Positions 9,016-62,043 of a DNA stretch of 64,000 nt are shown in pieces. The position numbers and the translations under genes are program-made. Source of the stretch: an uncultured Acidimicrobiia bacterium (GTDB lineage: Bacteria > Acidobacteriota > Terriglobia > Versatilivoradales > Versatilivoraceae); the NCBI GenBank assembly GCA_963786955.1, contig CAWBAT010000009.1, forward strand, positions 64,001 through 128,000, given 5' to 3'. The notes beneath the pieces were generated by a model. The model did not search any database, was not told the DNA's origin, and saw nothing but the letters and a program-made list of their open reading frames with translations. The stretch's first letter is position 1; each line of letters opens with the position of its first letter.

Positions 9016-9196
9016 CCGCTCAAGCCAGTATCCCCCGGACATAGAAACCAATTCCCCTCACGAGACCTTTCCCTCAAGGGCACCCGAGGTCTTTTCCCCT
9101 GGTTTCACATTACGCTGTGACGCAAGGTGTGGTGACATCCCAACTCGTGGCGATTGACAGAGGCAGCTTCACCCCAAGTCCCGGTGAGTCAAGCGG
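9016..9196. ncRNA. Candidate structured non-coding RNA, family unassigned
   Basis: Several nested complementary segments in the gap between convergent genes (see findings). Strand uncertain. Confidence 0.4.
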
Positions 9197-9238
9197 CAGG
9201 CGCAAAGTGTTTTACTTTTGAACCCGGAACGACACGCC

Positions 9239-9694
9239 TCATTCTTCCTCCCCAAAATACCTCAACCATTCCTTTGTATTTCCGATGCTAAGATCCCGGT
9301 TCTCTTCGACCTTGCCGCCTCCGGACTCACGAATCATTCGGTTAAATTCGTGGCATTTAAGAGCCTTGACACCGCACGTTTTGGCATACCCATAGACGGC
9401 ATTGTCCGAGGAAATCACGCACAGATCTTTTCGGTCCTTTGAGGATTCTACCCGGCGACGGATGACTTCATCCGCATTGGATTGAGGTCCAGAGAATATG
9501 AGCTGGATTCGGGAAGTTTTACGTAGGGGGGCACTTCTCCCGTCGAAAACAACGATGGCTTTCCGATGGGTCGATTCCAGAAAAGATGAGACATAATCCA
9601 CCAAGAATTGACGGGTGTTGACCGACGGTTGACTGGCAACCGACTTGGTATGTCCAATAAGATTGTTCCCGTCGATTAGGTACATTGAATCCAT
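9239..9694 (-). CDS. NYN domain RNase, YacP/Rae1-like
   Basis: YLIDGNNL, VVFDG, ADEVI and VISSD acidic motifs. Confidence 0.85.
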   Translation of the reverse strand: MDSMYLIDGNNLIGHTKSVASQPSVNTRQFLVDYVSSFLESTHRKAIVVFDGRSAPLRKTSRIQLIFSGPQSNADEVIRRRVESSKDRKDLCVISSDNAVYGYAKTCGVKALKCHEFNRMIRESGGGKVEENRDLSIGNTKEWLRYFGEEE

Positions 9695-9699
9695 TGCAA

Positions 9700-10833
9700 T
9701 CAGTTGGATTGGACCTGCTGAATCACGCGATCATAAAAATCCTCATAGCGGACGATGATCTTATGCGCGCAGAAGCTTTCCTGGGCACGGTCTCGGGCGT
9801 TATTTCCCATTTGGTGGTGCAAGGAATCGCTCGATAATAGCTCGATCGCTTTTGCCGCCATTAAGTCCACATTCCGGGGGGGGACCAAAAACCCGTCAAG
9901 CCCATCGCGTACGACTTCCGGAATGCCTCCCACTGCAGAGGCAATGACCGGCACTTCACACGCCATGGCTTCCAGCGCCACCAACCCAAACGACTCCGTT
10001 TCGCTTGGTAACAGCATCAAATCGGAGATGGAAAGAATTTCAGAAATCGAATCTTGTTTTCCTAGGAAGTTAACCTTGCATCCCAAAGCCTTATTTCGTA
10101 CCAACCATTCGGCGCTCGATCGTTCTGGACCGTCTCCCACCATGATGAGCCGTGATGGAATTCTCCGTTGCACCTGATCAAATATCTCAATGACGTCCAT
10201 CACACGCTTTACCGGACGGAAATTGGAGATGTGCACCAGGATTCTTTCTCCGCTGGGTGCAAATTTTTCTCTCAATTCCTGGTTTCCCGACCTTTGGAAG
10301 ACATCACAGTTAACAAAATTGGGAATCATTTCAATGGAGTGTTTAATGTCAAACTCTCTGTAGGTCAGATCGCGCAAATAGACAGAGACTGCCGTCACTC
10401 CATTACTCTTCTCGATAGAAAATTTGGTAATGGGTAAATAAGAACGATCGTTCCCAACCAGGGTGATATCAGTCCCATGCAGAGTGGTAATCACGGGCAG
10501 CTTCAAAGGGAGGAGCATCTGCTTGGCCAGATAAGCGCTCACCGAATGCGGGATGGCATAGTGGACATGGAGCAGGTCGAGTTCATGATTTACTGCCACG
10601 TCCGCCATTTTGGTTGCCAAAGCCAAGGCATAGGGAGGATGCTCAAAAAGCGGATAATTTAACATTTCCACTTCATGGAAATAGATTTTCTCACTCGTAC
10701 TGTCGAGTTTGATGGGAATGGCATAGCTGATAAAATGAATTTCATGTCCTCGCCCTGCCAACTCTTTTCCGATTTCTGTAGCGACAACTCCGCTACCACC
10801 ATAGGTTGGGTAACAAGTGATTCCGATTCTCAC
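9700..10833 (-). CDS. bshA: N-acetyl-alpha-D-glucosaminyl L-malate synthase
   Basis: CYPTYGGSGVVATE, HVHYAIPH, TTLHGTDIT and HISNFRPVKR. Confidence 0.95.
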   Translation of the reverse strand: MRIGITCYPTYGGSGVVATEIGKELAGRGHEIHFISYAIPIKLDSTSEKIYFHEVEMLNYPLFEHPPYALALATKMADVAVNHELDLLHVHYAIPHSVSAYLAKQMLLPLKLPVITTLHGTDITLVGNDRSYLPITKFSIEKSNGVTAVSVYLRDLTYREFDIKHSIEMIPNFVNCDVFQRSGNQELREKFAPSGERILVHISNFRPVKRVMDVIEIFDQVQRRIPSRLIMVGDGPERSSAEWLVRNKALGCKVNFLGKQDSISEILSISDLMLLPSETESFGLVALEAMACEVPVIASAVGGIPEVVRDGLDGFLVPPRNVDLMAAKAIELLSSDSLHHQMGNNARDRAQESFCAHKIIVRYEDFYDRVIQQVQSN

Positions 10834-11549
10834 TTTTTTCCCCCTTTGCCAAAAAATTCAACAGGGTCCGGGATGCCTATGGGATCCTTGCAATAAAAGC
10901 CTTCGGCGTATTCGGCCTGAATCAATTTTCCATAGTATCGATCCACGCTCTCATGCGCGGAAAGAAACTGAGGAACACTTAAGTAAGTCTCCGGTTCCCT
11001 CGAATTCGGATCATAGAGTTGCGACTTGAAGCAGCGGACGGCTTCCATTTTCCGTGTATACTGCGCACTGACATCGACATAAAACGAAGGTTGAACGGGG
11101 TACGGCAGCTGAAAGTAAAAGATCTTGCCAGGTCGAAACCGCTCCTGCCCTGTTTTGATCTTGGCCAATCCGGCAAGGTAACAGGCTTGGGTAACGATCC
11201 TGCTGGTATAGACGTGGTCCGGATGCTTGTCGTCCCAGTAGTGCGTGAAAACTAACCCAGGCCGGTATTTCCTCAAAACTTTGACCACGCGCAGTCGTGC
11301 ATCTGGTGTATCAAAGATTTGCCCGTCTTTCAGCCGGAGGTTTTCTCGGACAACAATTCCCAGCACCTTGGCGGAGGCCGCGGCCTCCCGCGCGCGTAAT
11401 TGTGGAGTCCCCCGACTTCCCAATTCACCCCGGACCATATCCACGACACCCGTTTTGTGCCCCAGGGCGGCAAGTTTGATTAACGTCCCCCCTACATATA
11501 ATTCAATGTCATCGGGATGCGCACCGATGGCAATCGCATCAAGCTTCAT
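10830..11549 (-). CDS. bshB1: Bacillithiol biosynthesis deacetylase (PIG-L family)
   Basis: AHPDDIEL and HPDH motifs; overlaps the bshA start. Confidence 0.9.
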   Translation of the reverse strand: MKLDAIAIGAHPDDIELYVGGTLIKLAALGHKTGVVDMVRGELGSRGTPQLRAREAAASAKVLGIVVRENLRLKDGQIFDTPDARLRVVKVLRKYRPGLVFTHYWDDKHPDHVYTSRIVTQACYLAGLAKIKTGQERFRPGKIFYFQLPYPVQPSFYVDVSAQYTRKMEAVRCFKSQLYDPNSREPETYLSVPQFLSAHESVDRYYGKLIQAEYAEGFYCKDPIGIPDPVEFFGKGGKK

Positions 11550-11997
11550 CAAGGCTCTTTCCTTTCCAAGGACCAATGGTGATCTGGCGAACGTTCTCTC
11601 CACCGCTCAAGATTCTGACGTGGACGGCATCGTTGATTTTCATCTCGGCCAACTTTTCAGCCCATTCCACGATAATGACAGCTGGTTCCTCGAAAAGATC
11701 TTCTAACTCCAAGGTCGTGATCTCTTCCAGTCCTTCCAAGCGATAAAGATCGATATGATACACCTTGAATTTTTGGGTGTATTCATTAATCAGAGTAAAA
11801 GATGGACTGGGAACATCATCCGGGTCCGCTTGGCCCAATCCGCAAATCATGCCCTTGGCGAAGACGGTCTTTCCAGCGCCCAGGTCTCCTTCCAGGAAAA
11901 ACTTGGCAGGGGTCTCTAGTAAGCGGCCTATGGAATGCGCCAATTCGAAGGTTTCTTGTGAGTTATGGGTGAGGAATTGCCCGCATGGAATGGACAT
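11539..11997 (-). CDS. tsaE: t6A biosynthesis ATPase
   Basis: GDLGAGKT, SPSFTL, HIDLYRL and VEW. Confidence 0.96.
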   Translation of the reverse strand: MSIPCGQFLTHNSQETFELAHSIGRLLETPAKFFLEGDLGAGKTVFAKGMICGLGQADPDDVPSPSFTLINEYTQKFKVYHIDLYRLEGLEEITTLELEDLFEEPAVIIVEWAEKLAEMKINDAVHVRILSGGENVRQITIGPWKGKSLDEA

Positions 11998-12230
11998 AGA
12001 TTACTGAATTGCAAAAAACAACACGAAAGTTGCTGGAGGCCGAGGCATGCATGCCCCTTGGCTCAAAGTCTGCGGTCCATAGTTAAAGATCGATCGGCCG
12101 GGGTAGAGGGCTCAAATCCCCACTTCAAGTTCAACGATCGGAAGCCTCACCCGCGAGCGTTCAGCTACCGGAAGCCGACCTTTCGATGCGCGTAGATCGA
12201 TGCTGGAATCTAACGGCTGAGATAAGAATC

Positions 12231-22288: not shown

Positions 22289-24163
22289 ATGAAGAGAATA
22301 CAGTCTCAAGGGAACGGCTCACGCTCATACCATCCCGGGACGAGATACCTTTCTGCGCGCTCGCTGCTGGCACTCTGTTTCCTTGTTCTTATTGCATGTG
22401 GTCATGTTGCGCTGGCTGCCGAGTCGGGACAACAGAAGAACATCCTGGTCCTGTACAGCTTCTCCGACCGCGGCGTATTTGATCCGCTGGAACGTCTCAA
22501 GTCGGCGATTCGATCTCGTCTCAACTTGCCGGTGAATTTCTATGTGCATTACATGGAGGCACAAGGATTTGAAGATCCGAATTACGAACGGAGCCTGAGC
22601 GAAACTTTGAGCCACGAGTATAGTGGCGTGAAATTAGACTTAGTGATCGTCGCAGCCTATCCGGCGCTTCAATTCGCTGTGAGATATCGCGATCACATTT
22701 TCCCGGGTGTCCCAGTGCTATTCAGGTCTGTCCACGACGGCAGGTTAGAGGGCAAGCATTTATGGCCCGGTGTAACCGGAGTGACGATTTCCATAGGAGT
22801 TCGTGAAACATTAGACCTCTCCTTTAGACTTCATCCGGGCACGCAAATTCTCGCAGTTGTCACAGGGACCTCGGAATTTGAGAGGTACTGGCAGGCGGCG
22901 ATTCGTAATGAGTTCCGTCTGTATGCCGGCAAGGTGAAGCTCATCGAGATCGTGGGACTTCGGAATGACGAGATTCTCAAGCAGGTCGCCGTGCTTCCTG
23001 CTAACACCGTGGTTTTCTTTCAAGTTGCGCCCAGGGATTCGACGCAGCCTGAAGTCGGCGTCTATGACACTATGGCAGCGATCAGCCAGCGTTTCCCGAC
23101 ATACAGCATCTTTGGGAACTATTGCATTGATCATGGTGGTATTGGCGGGTCGTCTGCGGATAACGGTGAGCAAAGTTCGAAAACCGCCGAAATGGCCGCC
23201 CGACTCCTTTCTGGCGAGAAACCCGAGAACATCCCGGTCGCGCACGGCCCCGCGCCCCGCCCTATTGTCGATTGGCGCCAGCTTCGCCGGTGGAACATAC
23301 CCGAGTCGGCTCTTCCGCCCGCCACCATCGTTTTGTATCGCCAGCCAACGGCCTGGGGACGATACCAGAAGTACATCCTTGCCGGAGTCGCGGTGATCAT
23401 CCTCCAGTCTTTGTTGATCGCTGGATTGCTGTGGCATCGCGCCCAAAAGAGGTCTGCAACGGAAGATCTCAAAGCCCTTGGTGGGCGTTTACTTAATGCC
23501 CAAGAGGAAGAACGCACTCGCATCGCCAGGGAGCTTCACGACGACTTCAGTCAGCGATTGGCAGTTCAGTGTATTGAGCTCGAACAGCTACACAATGACC
23601 TCCCCGAGTCAGAAGCTGAGAAACGAGCCCGGGCATTGACAATACTGAAGGAGACAAAGGAAATGTCTGCGGACATTCGTTCTCTCTCTCATCAACTCCA
23701 TTCCAGTAGGCTGGAGCTTGTAGGACTAGTGCCGGCTCTCAGTGGTCTTTGTGAAGAAATCACTAAGAAATACAAGATCGCAGTTCGTTTTACGGAGCCT
23801 GAATTTCCTCCTAATCTCAGAAAGGATGTGGAACTGTGTCTATTCCGAGTCGCCCAGGAAGCGCTTGCCAACATCGTTAAGCATAGTCAGGCGAGTAGCG
23901 CGCACATTGAACTCCGTGCCAACGCGAATGGCGTCAGACTTCACATCTCGGATCCGGGCAAGGGATTTGACCCTGACTTGAAAAGAACGAGTGCAGGAAT
24001 CGGATTGATGAGTATGAGCGAGAGGCTGCGGCTTTTTGGTGGCAGGTTTTCGGTACATTCGGAACTCATGCGAGGGACAGAAGTTCTCGCCGAAATACCC
24101 ATCTCCGCCTCCGCGAAACAAGCACAAGCAACTAAGCACAAAGCGGGGGGGATGGAATCTTGA
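22289..24163 (+). CDS. Sensor histidine kinase (substrate-binding-like periplasmic domain, HisKA_3, HATPase)
   Basis: EERTRIARELHD, QEALANIVKHS and DPGKGF. Signal/TM segments flank a large extracytoplasmic domain. Confidence 0.92.
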   Translation: MKRIQSQGNGSRSYHPGTRYLSARSLLALCFLVLIACGHVALAAESGQQKNILVLYSFSDRGVFDPLERLKSAIRSRLNLPVNFYVHYMEAQGFEDPNYERSLSETLSHEYSGVKLDLVIVAAYPALQFAVRYRDHIFPGVPVLFRSVHDGRLEGKHLWPGVTGVTISIGVRETLDLSFRLHPGTQILAVVTGTSEFERYWQAAIRNEFRLYAGKVKLIEIVGLRNDEILKQVAVLPANTVVFFQVAPRDSTQPEVGVYDTMAAISQRFPTYSIFGNYCIDHGGIGGSSADNGEQSSKTAEMAARLLSGEKPENIPVAHGPAPRPIVDWRQLRRWNIPESALPPATIVLYRQPTAWGRYQKYILAGVAVIILQSLLIAGLLWHRAQKRSATEDLKALGGRLLNAQEEERTRIARELHDDFSQRLAVQCIELEQLHNDLPESEAEKRARALTILKETKEMSADIRSLSHQLHSSRLELVGLVPALSGLCEEITKKYKIAVRFTEPEFPPNLRKDVELCLFRVAQEALANIVKHSQASSAHIELRANANGVRLHISDPGKGFDPDLKRTSAGIGLMSMSERLRLFGGRFSVHSELMRGTEVLAEIPISASAKQAQATKHKAGGMES

Positions 24164-24799
24164 GTCGGCCACGTGTACTACTGGCAGATGACCATCGGAT
24201 GTTGACAGATGCGTTGAAGAGCCTTTTGGAGCCTCGTTGCGAAGTTGTGGGCACGGTGAGTGATGGGCGGGCACTTGTTGAGGCAGCGGGCAAATTGCAA
24301 CCTGACATCGTTGTGCTGGACATTGCCATGCCCTGTTTGAACGGGCTCGACGCTGCCAGACAACTCAAGGCCAAGCTGCCCAAATTAAAACTTATCTTCA
24401 TGACCATGCATGAAGACCCTTATCTTGTGGGGGGAGGCCTTTCGGGCCGGTGGCTCTGCATTTCTACTGAAGGAGGCGGCAGCGTCAGAGCTGGCCGCTG
24501 CGCTTGACCAAGTCTTGAAAGGCAGTTCCTACGTAACACCAAGCGCCGCCGAAAGCTTGACCACTATCTCCCTGCGCGACCCTAAGAACCGGCACCATGC
24601 CCCGCAACCCACTGCTCGACAGCGGGAAGTCATTCAACTATTGGCGGAAGGATTCTCCATGAAGGAAGTAGCCGACGCGTTGAAAATCTCCATTCGAACC
24701 GTGGCGGGGCACAAATACGCCGTTATGGAACTCCTGCAATTGAAGACCAACGCCGAACTGGTCCAATACGCCATCAAGCACAGCATCATCTCGATCTAA
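24160..24799 (+). pseudogene. NarL/LuxR-family response regulator split by a +1 frameshift
   Basis: REC domain (LADDH, VLDIAMP) in one frame; the rest and the HTH (RQREVIQLLAEG) in another. The junction is at a G6 run near 24429-24434. Confidence 0.8.
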
Positions 24800-46269: not shown

Positions 46270-46582
46270 TGTCCGGGGCCAGCGGCAACCGGCTACAACT
46301 TTTCAACACCCGCTGTAGCCGGCCTCGATGAGGCCGGTCATGGTCCGGGGCCATCGGCCCCGGCTAACACTTTTCAGCACCCGCTGTAGCCGGCCTCGTT
46401 GAGGCCGGTCCATGTCCGGGGCCAGCGGCCCCGGCTACAACTTTTCAGCACCCGCTGTAGCCGGCCTCGTTGAGGCCGGTCCATGTCCGGGGCCAGCGGC
46501 CTCAGGCTACAACTTTTCAGCACCCGCTGTAGCCGGCCTCGATGAGGCCGGTCCATGTCCGGGGCCAGCGGCCCCGGCTACA
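46270..46582. repeat. Tandem array A of 71-72-bp REPIN units (about 4.5 copies)
   Basis: TGTAG starts at 46314, 46385, 46456 and 46528. Unit TGTAGCCGGCCTCGWTGAGGCCGGTCCATGTCCGGGGCCAGCGGCCCCGGCTACA plus a 16-bp linker. Confidence 0.93.
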
Positions 46583-46770
46583 ACAGCGCTACGTAATCTT
46601 GTACAAAAAATGAAAGTACAGAGAGCCCGTGCCATTAAGTCCTCTCCGATGACTTCCAATAAGTTGACATGGGGGCCATCTCATTGTTCATTATTTGAAG
46701 ATGAGATTAGGTTTCATTTTCCCTTCCAATTGATCCCTGGCAACATCGCACGACAGGCGTGGACGCCTGT

Positions 46771-46940
46771 TGTCCGCGACCAGCGGCCCCGGCTACAACT
46801 TTTCAGCACCCGCTGTAGCCGGCCTCGATGAGGCCGGTCCATGTCCGGGGCCAGCGGCCTCAGGCTACAACTTTTCAGCACCCGCTGTAGCCGGCCTCGT
46901 TGAGGCCGGTCCATGTCCGGGGCCAGCGGCCCCGGCTACA
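46771..46940. repeat. Tandem array B of the same REPIN unit (about 2.5 copies)
   Basis: TGTAG starts at 46814 and 46886. Same leader and trailer as array A. Confidence 0.93.
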
Positions 46941-47094
46941 ACAGCGCTACGTAATCTTGTACAAAAAGTAAAAATACAGAGAGCCTGCGCCACTAGGTCC
47001 TCTCCGATCACTTCCAACAAGTTGACTAGATAGAAGATCATGAGCCGTATGGGTAGTTTTTTGATCCCTTGGAAATTGATGCTAAACTGAATCC

Positions 47095-49747: not shown

Positions 49748-50897
49748 ATGTCTCTAACGCAAGAAATCAAGGCGAAAGCTCTCGACATAGGATTTTCCAA
49801 GGTAGGAATTAGCCCTGCGGAGCGGCTCGACGAACGGAACGGCCTCCAATCCTGGCTTGCCGCAGGACGAGCCGGTGAGATGGAATGGATGAACCGTTAC
49901 CCTGACAAACGGGTCGATCCCGCGAAAGTCCTTCCCAAAGTACAGTCGGTCATCGCTTTGGCTATGAATTACTACACCCCGCTTGTCTCATTCTGAAAAC
50001 GGCCAACATGGCAAAATCTCTCGCTACGCCTGGGGACGCGACTATCATCAGGTCATGAACGATCGTTTGAAACAGTTGTGGGAATGGATCAGAGACTGCA
50101 ACCCCTCAGCGGAAGGCCTCTTCTATTCGGATACCGGTCCGCTCATGGACAAGGCTTGGGCTCACAGGAGTGGACTTGGCTGGATCGGCAAACACTCCAA
50201 TGTGATCACGCGCGATCGCGGATCATGGGTTTTCTTAGGAGAGATTCTTATCAGTCTGAAACTCGACTATGATGTCGAAAGCCGAAATTATTGTGGCAGT
50301 TGCCGGCGATGCATCGACTGTTGCCCGACTAAAGCCATTGTTGCCCCTTATGTCGTAGACGCCCGTTTATGCATTTCGTATCTCACGATTGAACTCCGTG
50401 GCCCGATTCCCCGTGAGCTTCGATCGATGATTGGCTCTCGAATTTTTGGCTGTGATGACTGCCAGGACGTCTGCCCTTGGAATCGCTTTGCAACCGCCTC
50501 GACGGAGAAGGAGTTTTATCCGGACCCAAGGAATCATGTGCCTGTTTTACGCGATCTAATGGAGATGACTGAAACCGAATTTAAAGAACGTTTTCGCCAC
50601 AGTCCGGTAAGACGTGCCCGGTATGCTGGTTTCTTGCGCAACGTTGCCGTTGCGCTTGGAAACAGCCACGATTCCTCGGCTTGTGACGTATTAGAGAAAT
50701 CGTTAACACACGACGCGCCACTTGTTCGGTCCCATGCGGCCTGGGCCTTAGCAGAAATTGGCAATCCAGATTCACTGCCCGCATTGATTAGAGCCGCCTC
50801 GACCGAGCCCGAAACGTGGGTGCGTGATGAATTCCAGGAGGCCATCAACTCCTTCCAATCCAAGCCTTCTTTGACGTCGAACTTTTCGCCGACGTAG
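49748..50897 (+). pseudogene. queG: Epoxyqueuosine reductase split by a +1 frameshift
   Basis: N-terminal 82-aa ORF ends MNYYTPLVSF*. The next frame continues ISRYAWGRDYH, CGSCRRCIDCCP and GCDDCQDVCPWN, then HEAT repeats. Confidence 0.85.
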
Positions 50898-58441: not shown

Positions 58442-59863
58442 TTGAAAAAACGGTTCTTTATTAAGCGATCCCGCATCGAATCACCGGCGGAAAAAGTATT
58501 TCGTTGGCATTGCCGGGCTGGTGCGTTTGAGCGCCTTCAACCTCCATGGGAATCGGTTCGAATCCTCGAAAGAACCGGAGGGATTGAACCCGGGTCGAGA
58601 GTGGAACTCAGTGTGGGAATCGGCCCGCTACGCCAACGCTGGATTGCCGAACATCAAGGATTCCTCATGCCCAAAGCAGGTCAGGGAGATGCGACAGCCG
58701 AGTTCTGGCAATTTCAAGATGTCCAAGTCCAGGGTCCTTTTGCTCATTGGATTCACACTCATAAAGTGGAAGCCGACGGCAATAATGCTTGCTATTTGGA
58801 AGATCGTATAGAATATGCATTGCCATGGGGCAGGATCGGGGATTGGATTGGCAATCCGATTATGATTTCTAAATTGAAGCGTCTATTCACGTATCGCCAT
58901 CGGGTAACGGCAAATGACGCAGCATATCAGAGTGGCCCGAAAGGAGATCGCGTCATGAAGATTCTCGTTACTGGATCAACAGGATTCATGGGTTCTGCCC
59001 TGGTACCTTTCCTCACAACCGCAGGACATCAAGTCAGCCGTCTGTTCCGATCGAAGTCGACAAAGTTCCATGGCATGGAATCAGCAATTTCGTGGAATCC
59101 AGAAGCGGATGTGCTCGACTTAGCAAGCTTGGAAGGCTTTGATGCTGTTATTCATCTTGCCGGGGAAAGCATCGCGGGCGGTCGTTGGAGTTCGCAACGA
59201 AAGACCCAAATCCTGGAGAGCCGTTCCAAGGGAACGCGATTGCTTTCCGAGACTCTCAGCAGACTCGCTCATCCTCCCAAGGTGCTTATCAGCGCCTCCG
59301 CCATCGGGTATTATGGCGATCGTGGAGAAGAAAGGCTGAATGAACAAAGCTCCCCCGGCTCCGACTTCCTCGCAAAGGTTTGCCAGGAATGGGAAAAAGC
59401 TTCAACTGCCGCATCCGACGCTGGAATTCGGGTTCTAAACCTTCGTTTTGGCATCGTCCTTTCGACTACCGGGGGTGCCTTGCAGCGGATGCTGACCCCT
59501 TTTCGTTTGGGAGTAGGTGGTATTATAGGCAACGGCAGCCAATTCATGAGTTGGATTGCACTGGATGAACTTCTCGGCGTGATTCAGCACACACTGGTGA
59601 CTGATCAGCTGAGAGGTCCGATAAACGTGGCCTCACCCAACCCGGTAACGAATCGGGAATTCACCAAAACGTTGGGTCGAATTTTAGGACGCCCGACGAT
59701 TCTTCCAATGCCTGCTTTCGCCGCTAAATTGGCATTCGGGGAGATGGCCGAGGCACTGCTGCTTTCCAGCCAGCGAATAGAACCGCAACGTTTATTGCAG
59801 ACAGGTTACTCTTTTCGTTTTCCCGAGCTCGAAGGAGCGTTAAGATACCTGATGGGAAAGTAG
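58442..59863 (+). CDS. SRPBCC domain fused to a TIGR01777 oxidoreductase/epimerase
   Basis: N-terminal RLQPPW, QGPFAHWIHTH and FTYRH; then TGSTGFMG, HLAGE, SASAIGYYG and WIALDE. Confidence 0.92.
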   Translation: MKKRFFIKRSRIESPAEKVFRWHCRAGAFERLQPPWESVRILERTGGIEPGSRVELSVGIGPLRQRWIAEHQGFLMPKAGQGDATAEFWQFQDVQVQGPFAHWIHTHKVEADGNNACYLEDRIEYALPWGRIGDWIGNPIMISKLKRLFTYRHRVTANDAAYQSGPKGDRVMKILVTGSTGFMGSALVPFLTTAGHQVSRLFRSKSTKFHGMESAISWNPEADVLDLASLEGFDAVIHLAGESIAGGRWSSQRKTQILESRSKGTRLLSETLSRLAHPPKVLISASAIGYYGDRGEERLNEQSSPGSDFLAKVCQEWEKASTAASDAGIRVLNLRFGIVLSTTGGALQRMLTPFRLGVGGIIGNGSQFMSWIALDELLGVIQHTLVTDQLRGPINVASPNPVTNREFTKTLGRILGRPTILPMPAFAAKLAFGEMAEALLLSSQRIEPQRLLQTGYSFRFPELEGALRYLMGK

Positions 59864-59903
59864 TTTCGTCGTTTAAAAATAACATTCATCAAGGGGAATG
59901 CAA

Positions 59904-60251
59904 ATGAGTGCCATCGATTGGTCTTATCATCGTCCGGGTTGAAAGACCTGCGCCAGAACGCAGGAGTTTCTTGCGAAGAAAAAAATCAACCCGACCACCC
60001 AAATTGACGCCAGGAAGACGACTTTGAAGGAACAGGATGCTTTGGCGTTAATTCGCGATATTGATGAAATCTATGCCATGAGAGGAAAGAAAATACTGCA
60101 TGTTGACCTCAAGAAAGAGAAGCCTGACAACGCCACACTTTCAGGCATGCTTCTTGGCCCAACCGGAAACTTGCGCGCCCCGACTCTCCGAAAAGGTCGC
60201 ACCCTTATTGTTGGGTTTGATCCGGAAACCTACTCGAAATTACTACCTTGA
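59904..60251 (+). CDS. ArsC/Spx-like thioredoxin-fold selenoprotein (UxxC), 115 aa
   Basis: ATG with AAGGGG SD. MSAIDWSYHRPG-TGA(59940)-KTCARTQEFL continues in frame into the track ORF with LGPTGNLRAPTLRKG...VGF. A hairpin follows the UGA. Confidence 0.85.
59943..59972 (+). promoter_or_regulatory. Putative bacterial SECIS element
   Basis: CCTGCG-CCAGAA-CGCAGG stem-loop (59947-59964) just after the UGA, with a G in the loop and a possible lower AAGA/TCTT stem. Confidence 0.6.
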
Positions 60252-60531: not shown

Positions 60532-60792
60532 GGGGTCGGAGGGGAGCCCACGCCTATGGAGGTTTACGATGATTTTTATTCCCACTCCGACGGGAACAGT
60601 TTCGGCCAGAGTTGTGGGGCCAACTTGACTTATTGTATTCATTTATCTGTAGCTTAGTGTCATTTCGACCGATTAGTTATTGTTCTCGCGAAGGGCTGGA
60701 AGATTAACCGCACACGGCCAAAACCGTGTGGCGCTATTGACGAACACCTCATTCAATCCAAGTTGGAATCACTTTCTAAGGAGCCTATCGTT

Positions 60793-62043
60793 TTGTCTAA
60801 TCCAGAGATTGTAATTGTCGGTGGTGGAATTGCTGGCCTCTGCTGTGCCAGACGGCTACACCAAGAAGGCATTGCTTGCTTAATCTTGGAAGGATCGGAC
60901 GCCATTGGTGGAAGGATTCGGACCGATTCTGTAGACGGATTCTTATTGGATCGCGGTTTTCAAACTCTGTTGACCTCTTACCCTGAAGCCCAGAAATTCT
61001 TGGATTTTCCTTCGCTCGATCTCCACTCCTTCTTTCCCGGCGCCTTGATACGACTGAATGAGGGATTCCGCAAGCTTTCGGACCCCTGGAAAAGCCCCAT
61101 GGCAGTAACCCGGCAACTTTTCTCTTCCGTGGGCAGTCTTTCAGACAAATTGCGGATCGCCAAACTTCGCTGGAGAGTCCTCTCGGCTTCACTCGACGAC
61201 CTGCTGACCGCTCCAGAGACTACAACCCTGGCCGACTTACAAAACAGCGGTTTCACTCCAGCGATCATCGAACAGTTCTTCAGGCCTTTCTTTGGAGGGG
61301 TTTTCCTGGAGCCCGACTTGCAAACTTCAAGTCGGCTTTTTCATTTTGTATTCAGAATGTTCGCCACCGGAAAGGCCTCATTACCCGCATTGGGAATGGA
61401 AAGAATTCCGCAGTCGATTGCCTCTGGATTGCCCCAGGGCTCCATTTTAGTAGATGCCAGGGTGTCCAAGATTGAGGCTTCTGGAGTAGTTTTGGAGGCC
61501 GGAGAACGAATTCCAGCCCGCACCATTGTCCTTGCGACCGATGGCCCCCAGGCCGCTCGGTTGTTGAGCCATATTCCTCGGCCCGCTTCGCGCAGTGTCA
61601 CTTGCCTTTATTTTGCAGCCGACAAATCGCCGCTGAAGGATCCGATCCTAGTTGTAAACAGCACCGGCAAAGGTCCGATTAATCATTTCTGTGTTCCCAG
61701 CCAAATCGCTCCGAGTTACGCTCCCTCCGGGGCAGCCCTGCTGTCCGTCACGGTGCTGGGGAAACTTAAGCAGCAATATGAACCATTAGAGACGGCGGTC
61801 AGGACTCAGTTATACGATTGGTTTGGATCGGAATCTCTCGGCTGGAAGCATCTCAGAACTTATAATATCCTTCATGCTCTGCCCGCCCAAGAGCCTCCCA
61901 CGGTGCCTTCTTTGACCCGTGCGACCCAATTGAATCGTGGGCTTTACATTTGTGGAGATTACACCGACACCGCTTCAATCAACGGAGCTATGGCGTCTGG
62001 TCGGCGAGTGGCAGAAGCCATCATTCAAGACTTGCATCAATAA
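60793..62043 (+). CDS. FAD-dependent oxidoreductase (flavin amine oxidase/phytoene desaturase superfamily)
   Basis: VGGGIAGL, GGRIRT, LDRGFQ, CGD and GAMASG. TTG start with AAGGAG. Confidence 0.9.
   Translation: MSNPEIVIVGGGIAGLCCARRLHQEGIACLILEGSDAIGGRIRTDSVDGFLLDRGFQTLLTSYPEAQKFLDFPSLDLHSFFPGALIRLNEGFRKLSDPWKSPMAVTRQLFSSVGSLSDKLRIAKLRWRVLSASLDDLLTAPETTTLADLQNSGFTPAIIEQFFRPFFGGVFLEPDLQTSSRLFHFVFRMFATGKASLPALGMERIPQSIASGLPQGSILVDARVSKIEASGVVLEAGERIPARTIVLATDGPQAARLLSHIPRPASRSVTCLYFAADKSPLKDPILVVNSTGKGPINHFCVPSQIAPSYAPSGAALLSVTVLGKLKQQYEPLETAVRTQLYDWFGSESLGWKHLRTYNILHALPAQEPPTVPSLTRATQLNRGLYICGDYTDTASINGAMASGRRVAEAIIQDLHQ

Follow-up and report, generated by a model that had tools for sequence, protein, structure and literature searches.

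A probable ArsC-like selenoprotein gene truncated by standard gene calling and its SECIS-type hairpin

The locus and its truncated annotation

The window (the whole stretch of DNA analysed here, 64 kb) contains, close to its 3' end, a small gene of the ArsC superfamily whose frame runs across an in-frame TGA, preceded on the same strand by a gene with SRPBCC and TIGR01777-type domains (Table 1). ATG 59904, the internal TGA (59940-59942) and the closing TGA (60249-60251) lie in one frame on the plus strand which, going by the sequence and its translation, encodes 115 aa, with residues 9-16 of the read-through product being HRPG-U-KTC. The start codon, the internal TGA, the HRPG-U-KTC motif and the ORF start at 60024 that is given by standard calling are all present in the sequence as the original prediction had described them, and the good Shine-Dalgarno sequence claimed for ATG 59904 is found as well (AAGGGG, 7 nt ahead of the start codon). 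Another in-frame ATG, at 59898, is too close to AAGGGG, with 1 nt between them, and the N-termini of homologs, of the form M-x-x-[IVL]-D-W, are in register with a start at ATG 59904. The Cys residue of the motif, C16, is invariant in the protein alignment A2, and columns 10-11 (TG) are invariant in alignment A3.

Table 1. Features of the ArsC-like locus, in window coordinates
Feature	Position	Strand	Remarks
SRPBCC (polyketide-cyclase-like) + TIGR01777/YfcH-type SDR + DUF1731 gene	58442..59863	+	probable operon partner; Pfam domains
Shine-Dalgarno-like AAGGGG	59891..59896	+	7 nt ahead of ATG 59904
Full ArsC-like (seleno)protein CDS	59904..60251	+	115 aa + stop, internal TGA as Sec; NF041106 match
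In-frame TGA, codon 13, proposed selenocysteine, U of UxxC	59940..59942	+	aligned codon alternates TGA/TGC/TGT
Perfect 6-bp hairpin CCUGCG/CGCAGG	59947..59964	+	59947-59952 pairs with 59959-59964; loop CCAGAA
TGC, Cys16, resolving Cys of UxxC	59949..59951	+	invariant in homolog alignments
SECIS-type hairpin	59959..59975	+	59959-59965 pairs with 59969-59975, 7 bp, one G-U; loop GUU 59966-59968
75-aa ORF, TTG start, as given by standard ORF calling	60024..60251	+	standard ORF list; equals P0009 and P0010

The protein collection stores the window gene as a 75-aa fragment, P0009, and also P0010 (99% identity). Of 1895 candidates in a protein search, 1888 were relatives at E up to 0.001, and 24 of the 120 listed were fetched. 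Ten of these 24 homologs are full-length (115-124 aa), with Cys in eight and Trp in two at the position of U13; six are 102-103 aa long and begin right after the Sec position, and the start of the remaining eight (75-88 aa) is still further downstream. Such lengths are expected where gene callers stop at the TGA, and for this reason many relatives, too, are stored as fragments of 102 aa or 75-88 aa. Two ArsC-like database homologs, P0003 and P0007, read HRPGWKTC, with Trp exactly at the Sec position; presumably, the gene caller of the depositor rendered the TGA as Trp. The practical value of the present analysis lies in annotation: the stored 75-aa fragment lacks the active site, and the thioredoxin-fold protein becomes complete once the UGA is read as Sec.

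Family, predicted fold and Sec/Cys alternation

The read-through protein matches the NCBIfam model NF041106, 'ArsC family (seleno)protein', with 143.5 bits (cutoff 85; E 3.1e-42), and residues 4-110 align with profile positions 1-107 of 107, that is, with the full length of the model. The 75-aa ORF alone reaches 82.7 bits, under the cutoff, covers profile positions 38-107 only and lacks the UxxC motif, in agreement with the earlier claim that standard callers truncate the gene; therefore, about 60 bits are carried by the 40 N-terminal residues that include the TGA position. U13-K-T-C16 provides the U/C-x-x-C motif that NF041106 requires at the N-terminal loop/helix 1. The window protein shows the same UxxC and the same Sec/Cys alternation as this family, and no difference was found, which makes it an ordinary member.

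In a confident AlphaFold2 model (pLDDT 89.5, pTM 0.81), for which a 15-row alignment was used, U13 is after strand 3-9 and directly before helix 14-25, the predicted location of U13 being the classical place of CxxC in the thioredoxin fold. The model also contains a beta hairpin mid-protein (residues 55-68). According to the same model, the 75-aa piece would be left without strand 1, helix 1 and the entire redox motif. The best matches of the model in a Foldseek search against the PDB were Spx, the ArsC-related 3gkx and YffB (1rw1), all at TM of about 0.55 and rmsd of 6-7 A, a structural likeness that, for a predicted model, is only moderate.

With Spx/MgsR (TIGR01617; PDB 6ghb, 1z3e), the window protein has in common an N-terminal CxxC-type motif at the equal place of the fold (E 2.4e-4, TM 0.55), but it scores 31.3 bits against the TIGR01617 cutoff of 75.05, and its model has the beta hairpin 55-68. 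With glutaredoxin-coupled ArsC/YffB proteins (PF03960; 3gkx, 1rw1), it shares the superfamily fold, and in the alignment with 3gkx the active Cys of the N-terminal loop is opposite U13; it differs from these proteins in remaining below the Pfam ArsC gathering score (20.8 bits against 24) and in lacking an ars operon context, given that ars genes are absent from the 51 window ORFs scanned and from the recurrent neighbours at other loci. Arsenate reductase equivalog models gave no match to the read-through protein at E up to 0.1. A more specific role, either as an arsenate reductase in the strict sense (ArsC proper) or as a regulator that binds RNA polymerase in the manner of Spx, is therefore quite improbable for this protein in comparison with that of a general selenol/thiol oxidoreductase: the sub-cutoff Pfam and TIGR01617 scores do reflect superfamily similarity, and Spx chains are the best structural matches, but these scores, the equivalog result, the genomic context and the low TM and high rmsd values all argue against so specific an assignment. 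As the fold and the motif suggest, the window protein would act as a selenol/thiol oxidoreductase that cycles via a selenenylsulfide between U13 and C16.

The window gene belongs to an already catalogued selenoprotein family, and tables of ArsC-like or arsenate-reductase-like selenoproteins date back to 2006-2008 (PMC1794560, PMC2398784). In the parts of the respective papers available to us, 'ArsC-like' selenoproteins of Deltaproteobacteria are tabulated in PMC1794560; a survey of ocean metagenomes (PMC2398784) includes the selenoprotein family 'Arsenate reductase 2, cd03032, UxxC'; ArsC-like or arsenate-reductase-like selenoproteins are tabulated again in PMC9312934 (2022); and a 2026 review (PMC13188914) lists NF041106 with the UxxC motif and describes the functions of such families as largely uncharacterized. 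Compared by description only, as given in the available parts of both papers, the PMC1794560 and PMC2398784 sets resemble the window gene in being of the ArsC superfamily, in their N-terminal Sec and in the same logic of Sec/Cys alternation combined with a SECIS element. Because the family, the UxxC motif and the Sec/Cys alternation are already catalogued, the case is ordinary, and the original prediction overrated its novelty, the family having both an NCBIfam model and, in the accessible text of these papers, published selenoprotein tables.

A scan of one genome per species produced 599 pattern matches, among which 576 were confirmed as relatives, and the best 80 loci were used for comparison. 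In these best 80 of the 576, which are not all independent because MAGs with different phylum labels share near-identical ArsC-like copies, U13 is aligned with TGA in 64 loci, with TGC in 13 and with TGT in three, and the peptide DWSYHRxG upstream of the Sec codon is conserved in frame. Thus, the alternation of Cys and TGA, which the original prediction had proposed as a check, is found at the exact codon (64 TGA against 16 TGC or TGT in the best 80 of 576). By phylum label, the TGA forms come from Planctomycetota (20), Acidobacteriota (12), Methylomirabilota (9), Rokuibacteriota (4), Gemmatimonadota (3) and others, and the nearest relatives of the window protein among the best 80 of the 576 loci belong to NC10 and Acidobacteriota, with about 71% identity. 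Across the nearest genome-encoded relatives, identity is about 60-70%. Mapped on a maximum-likelihood tree (81 sequences), the Sec/Cys state must have changed five times or more, and two of these changes are forced by well-supported branches; 12 of the 16 Cys forms make up a single Planctomycetaceae clade that is nested among Sec forms. Judging from these sequences, the nearest relatives in soil and groundwater phyla appear to have Sec more often than Cys, a predominance that was not found in the accessible portions of the literature on ArsC-like selenoproteins.

The ArsC-like proteins of six loci (L023, L030, L033, L047, L049 and L051) are nearly identical, with end branches of 0.009-0.06, and the labels of these loci include Methylomirabilia, Rokubacteria, Nitrosotalea (an archaeon), Verrucomicrobiia and Dormiibacterota. 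The same tRNA-Asp is nearby in four of the six, and these copies seem to stem from mis-binned contigs of a single lineage and not from transfer.

Two overlapping hairpins downstream of the UGA

The perfect 6-bp stem-loop that the original prediction reported 3' of the UGA is present, at 59947-59964. It has a folding energy of -9.0 kcal/mol, with one of 200 shuffles folding as well, and the minimum-energy fold of 59940-59980 as free RNA (-14 kcal/mol) uses this hairpin and not the one at 59959-59975. The proposal that it serves as the SECIS element did not hold. Across the 65 TGA-form sequences, its pairing amounts to 81.5%, compared with 81.3 +/- 0.4 in column shuffles (199 of 500 reach the observed value), and the cells changed on both sides number five, with 5.2 expected; there is thus no covariation, and the pairing is present because the codons are fixed. 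As a SECIS candidate it was also rejected on two of the four constraints of the model in the available part of PMC13188914, since its loop does not start with G and the spacing is only 10 nt. The true conserved element is the next, overlapping hairpin at 59959-59975, and the two compete because the CGCAGG arm is common to both.

The bacterial SECIS consensus, as set out in the accessible text of PMC13188914, comprises a loop of 3-9 nt with a stem of 4-16 bp, G in the first two loop positions, a distance of 16-37 nt between the UGA and the loop, and a minimum free energy of -7.5 kcal/mol or lower. The hairpin at 59959-59975 begins 16 nt past the UGA, with its loop 23 nt past the UGA, and is like this consensus, so far as that text describes it, in its 3-nt loop starting with G then U, its 7 bp and its 23-nt spacing, but it is very compact and competes with a stronger upstream hairpin. 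Its energy is -7.1 kcal/mol when the 17 nt are folded alone and -8.2 kcal/mol within the 46-nt stretch 59955-60000, compared with the -7.5 kcal/mol asked by the model in the same partial source; the median across the TGA forms is -8.8 kcal/mol.

The hairpin overlaps the codons for Thr-Gln-Glu-Phe-Leu-Ala, and across the family it dictates the codons used for Thr-Gln-Glu/Gly-Phe-Leu-Ala. Covariation between its two arms (columns 20-26 vs 30-36) was assessed in 65 TGA-form sequences (64 loci and the window; 64 distinct rows). Pairing was observed in 91.7% of the cells, compared with 87.0 +/- 0.5 in column shuffles, and 26 cells were changed on both sides, compared with 9.7 +/- 2.0; neither value was reached in any of 500 shuffles, a control that ignores relatedness, so that 0/500 is not a probability. 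When the 3' partner was slid by 1-3 columns as a control, 30-67% of the cells were paired. At pair 26/30, 34 rows have A-U and 20 have G-C, and this covariation implies that the Glu/Gly replacement goes with a synonymous change of the Phe codon. RNAalifold independently chooses the hairpin 59959-59975.

The Cys forms provide a contrast. At least six of the seven pairs are kept in 58 of the 65 TGA forms (all seven in the window), compared with none of the 16 Cys forms, and in the remaining seven TGA forms the stem is shifted in register and closes an AGUU loop, with energies from -7.9 to -12.5 kcal/mol. A fold of -5 kcal/mol or lower is found at the hairpin site in all 65 TGA forms vs two of the 16 Cys forms. 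Third-codon-position entropy in the TGA forms is 0.69 bits inside the hairpin vs 1.56 outside; in the Cys forms, it is 1.37 bits inside the hairpin region vs 1.48 outside. In these alignments, the predicted hairpin constrains synonymous sites only in TGA forms. Both the Cys-form contrast and the constraint on synonymous sites are independent of the shuffle control.

A permissive Rfam scan of 59890-60060 returned chance-level matches only (best E 2.9) and no SECIS family. A covariance model of the SECIS region gave 70.3 bits for the window and 14.9-41.9 bits for the 16 Cys-form loci; this model adds little because the window is in the training set and the model captures coding similarity. Taken as a putative regulatory element, 59959-59975 is strongly supported as a conserved hairpin of the SECIS type that directs recoding. 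Its position and covariation were not found in those parts of the literature on ArsC-like selenoproteins that were available.

Selenocysteine decoding and genomic context

Recoding of UGA at codon 13 to Sec, which gives U13-K-T-C16 at the start of helix 1, is strongly supported. We consider it highly likely that the locus as a whole is a 115-aa gene of the NF041106 family, truncated by gene callers, in which UGA13 is decoded as Sec via the hairpin 59959-59975 and which encodes a predicted oxidoreductase and is probably co-transcribed with the SRPBCC-TIGR01777 gene. The original prediction of a Sec protein of the ArsC/Spx/YffB superfamily with a UxxC motif is supported by the full-length NF041106 match, the alternation of TGA and Cys, and the SECIS-type hairpin. 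In such decoding, SelB loaded with Sec-tRNA(Sec) would bind the hairpin 59959-59975 while the ribosome has the UGA in the A site. From what is known of ribosome footprints, the competing hairpin 59947-59964 would by then have entered the mRNA channel or reached its mouth, where it would be melted, freeing the shared arm, and the downstream hairpin could then form.

TGA terminates 15 of the 39 family-matched ORFs of the window, including the ArsC-like gene itself; as TGA is a normal stop, the organism uses the ordinary code. Neither selA, selB and selD nor a tRNA-Sec was found within the 64-kb window (Rfam and 51 ORFs scanned), and the Rfam scan of the whole window at gathering scores yielded one tRNA-Gly only. 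None of 141 other TGA read-through candidates from the window (a set that left out nine long ones, which are few-codon extensions of known genes, and 12 of the shortest) matches a family across the TGA; with no second selenoprotein gene in the window, there is no independent sign there of Sec decoding by the organism. These two absences within 64 kb are what would be seen also if the gene were a fossil, with Sec decoding lost, the UGA at 59940 acting as a terminator and at most the 75-aa C-terminal ORF being expressed; this is very improbable, however, because the frame is intact on either side of the UGA, the 12 N-terminal residues match those of homologs, the SECIS hairpin of the window retains all seven pairs, and the 75-aa piece, as noted above for the predicted model, would have no redox motif. 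It is barely credible that the TGA arose by an error of sequencing or assembly, or that a nonsense mutation has recently struck an ordinary Cys-type gene: two other window genes, those for QueG and a response regulator, do appear frameshifted, but these suspected errors are frameshifts and not substitutions, TGA occupies exactly this codon in 64 of the best 80 of 576 loci, and the window has the hairpin typical of the TGA forms and not of the Cys forms.

Returning to Sec decoding, a tRNA-Sec gene is located near one of the TGA-form relatives, in a Methylomirabilis MAG (L018), at 9186-9280, 1.8 kb downstream of the ArsC-like gene; it is found by ARAGORN and scores 71.4 bits with Rfam RF01852 (gathering score 47), and is the only one among the 64 TGA-form and 16 Cys-form loci. 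The nine ORFs around it gave no family match. In the available part of the 2006 survey PMC1794560, a table counts three selenoprotein families in Acidobacteria. The genes of the window, which include ADOP permeases, point to this phylum.

The two frameshifted-looking genes show that the assembly is not error-free. The LuxR/NarL-type response regulator is split at 24160-24796 into ORFs 24160-24504 (profile positions 3-86) and 24410-24796 (96-204), with a run of six G at about 24429-24434 within their overlap; the split probably reflects a frameshift or a homopolymer sequencing error. The gene queG (epoxyqueuosine reductase), at 49748-50897, is in two frames, with 49748-49993 matching positions 1-72 of TIGR00276 and 49983-50897 matching positions 81-336, an apparent frameshift and not a TGA read-through.

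The gene upstream of the ArsC-like gene scores 334.9 bits with TIGR01777 (cutoff 207), and its TIGR01777-type enzyme is fused to a lipid-binding SRPBCC domain. As originally described, it ends 40 bp upstream, at 59863, on the same strand. In the 40-nt gap, no promoter-like or terminator-like site was found. A TIGR01777 homolog is on the same strand within about 3.6 kb of the ArsC-like gene in 13 of the best 80 of 576 loci, at least 1.5 kb of upstream sequence being present in 67 of the 80. Given this gap and this linkage, the co-transcription of the two genes that was suggested earlier is judged plausible from the sequence. The TIGR01777 homolog is directly adjacent in eight of the 13 loci, ending 29-274 nt upstream in seven and being 46 nt downstream in one. 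The 13 loci are labelled Planctomycetota (5), Methylomirabilota (5), Acidobacteriota (1), Bacteroidota (1) and unplaced (1), and include both Sec and Cys forms. In four Planctomycetota loci (L008, L032, L034 and L040), a ferrochelatase gene is directly upstream of the TGA-form ArsC-like gene, and in L034 and L040 this gene separates the ArsC-like gene from the TIGR01777 homolog; other neighbours vary among the loci. The recurrent linkage to a TIGR01777 oxidoreductase was not found in the accessible text of the literature on ArsC-like selenoproteins. It is unlikely that the ArsC-like protein is a dedicated redox partner of the TIGR01777/YfcH-type SDR and that the two genes form a conserved module; if they did, the selenol would reduce or activate the TIGR01777-type enzyme or its substrate.

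The two largest clusters of neighbours comprise 20 and 9 loci; they have no Pfam match, overlap the ArsC-like gene in antisense on the minus strand, and were taken as ORF artefacts. In L034, the upstream genes also include one for MsrB (SelR domain). Downstream of the ArsC-like gene, the window encodes a protein of the flavin amine-oxidase family (60763-62043) that weakly resembles HpnE/protoporphyrinogen oxidase, below the cutoffs, and in the NC10 locus L005 a homolog with 50% identity to it is likewise downstream (10882-12072). Side by side at 9700-11603 of the window are bshA (554 bits against 273.7) and bshB1 (251.9 against 182.5); to judge from these genes, bacillithiol is probably synthesized by the organism and would be a candidate for the reductant of small thioredoxin-fold proteins, the ArsC-like one among them.

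Elsewhere in the window, two arrays of 71-72-nt tandem repeats are located between topA and trmFO, at 46270-46584 (4.4 copies) and 46771-46942 (2.4 copies), with 92-93% matches. Each repeat unit holds G+C-rich palindromes, and a 256-nt segment is duplicated at 95% identity; the arrays had no Rfam match at E up to 0.1, and spurious ORFs over the repeats yield repeated peptide strings.
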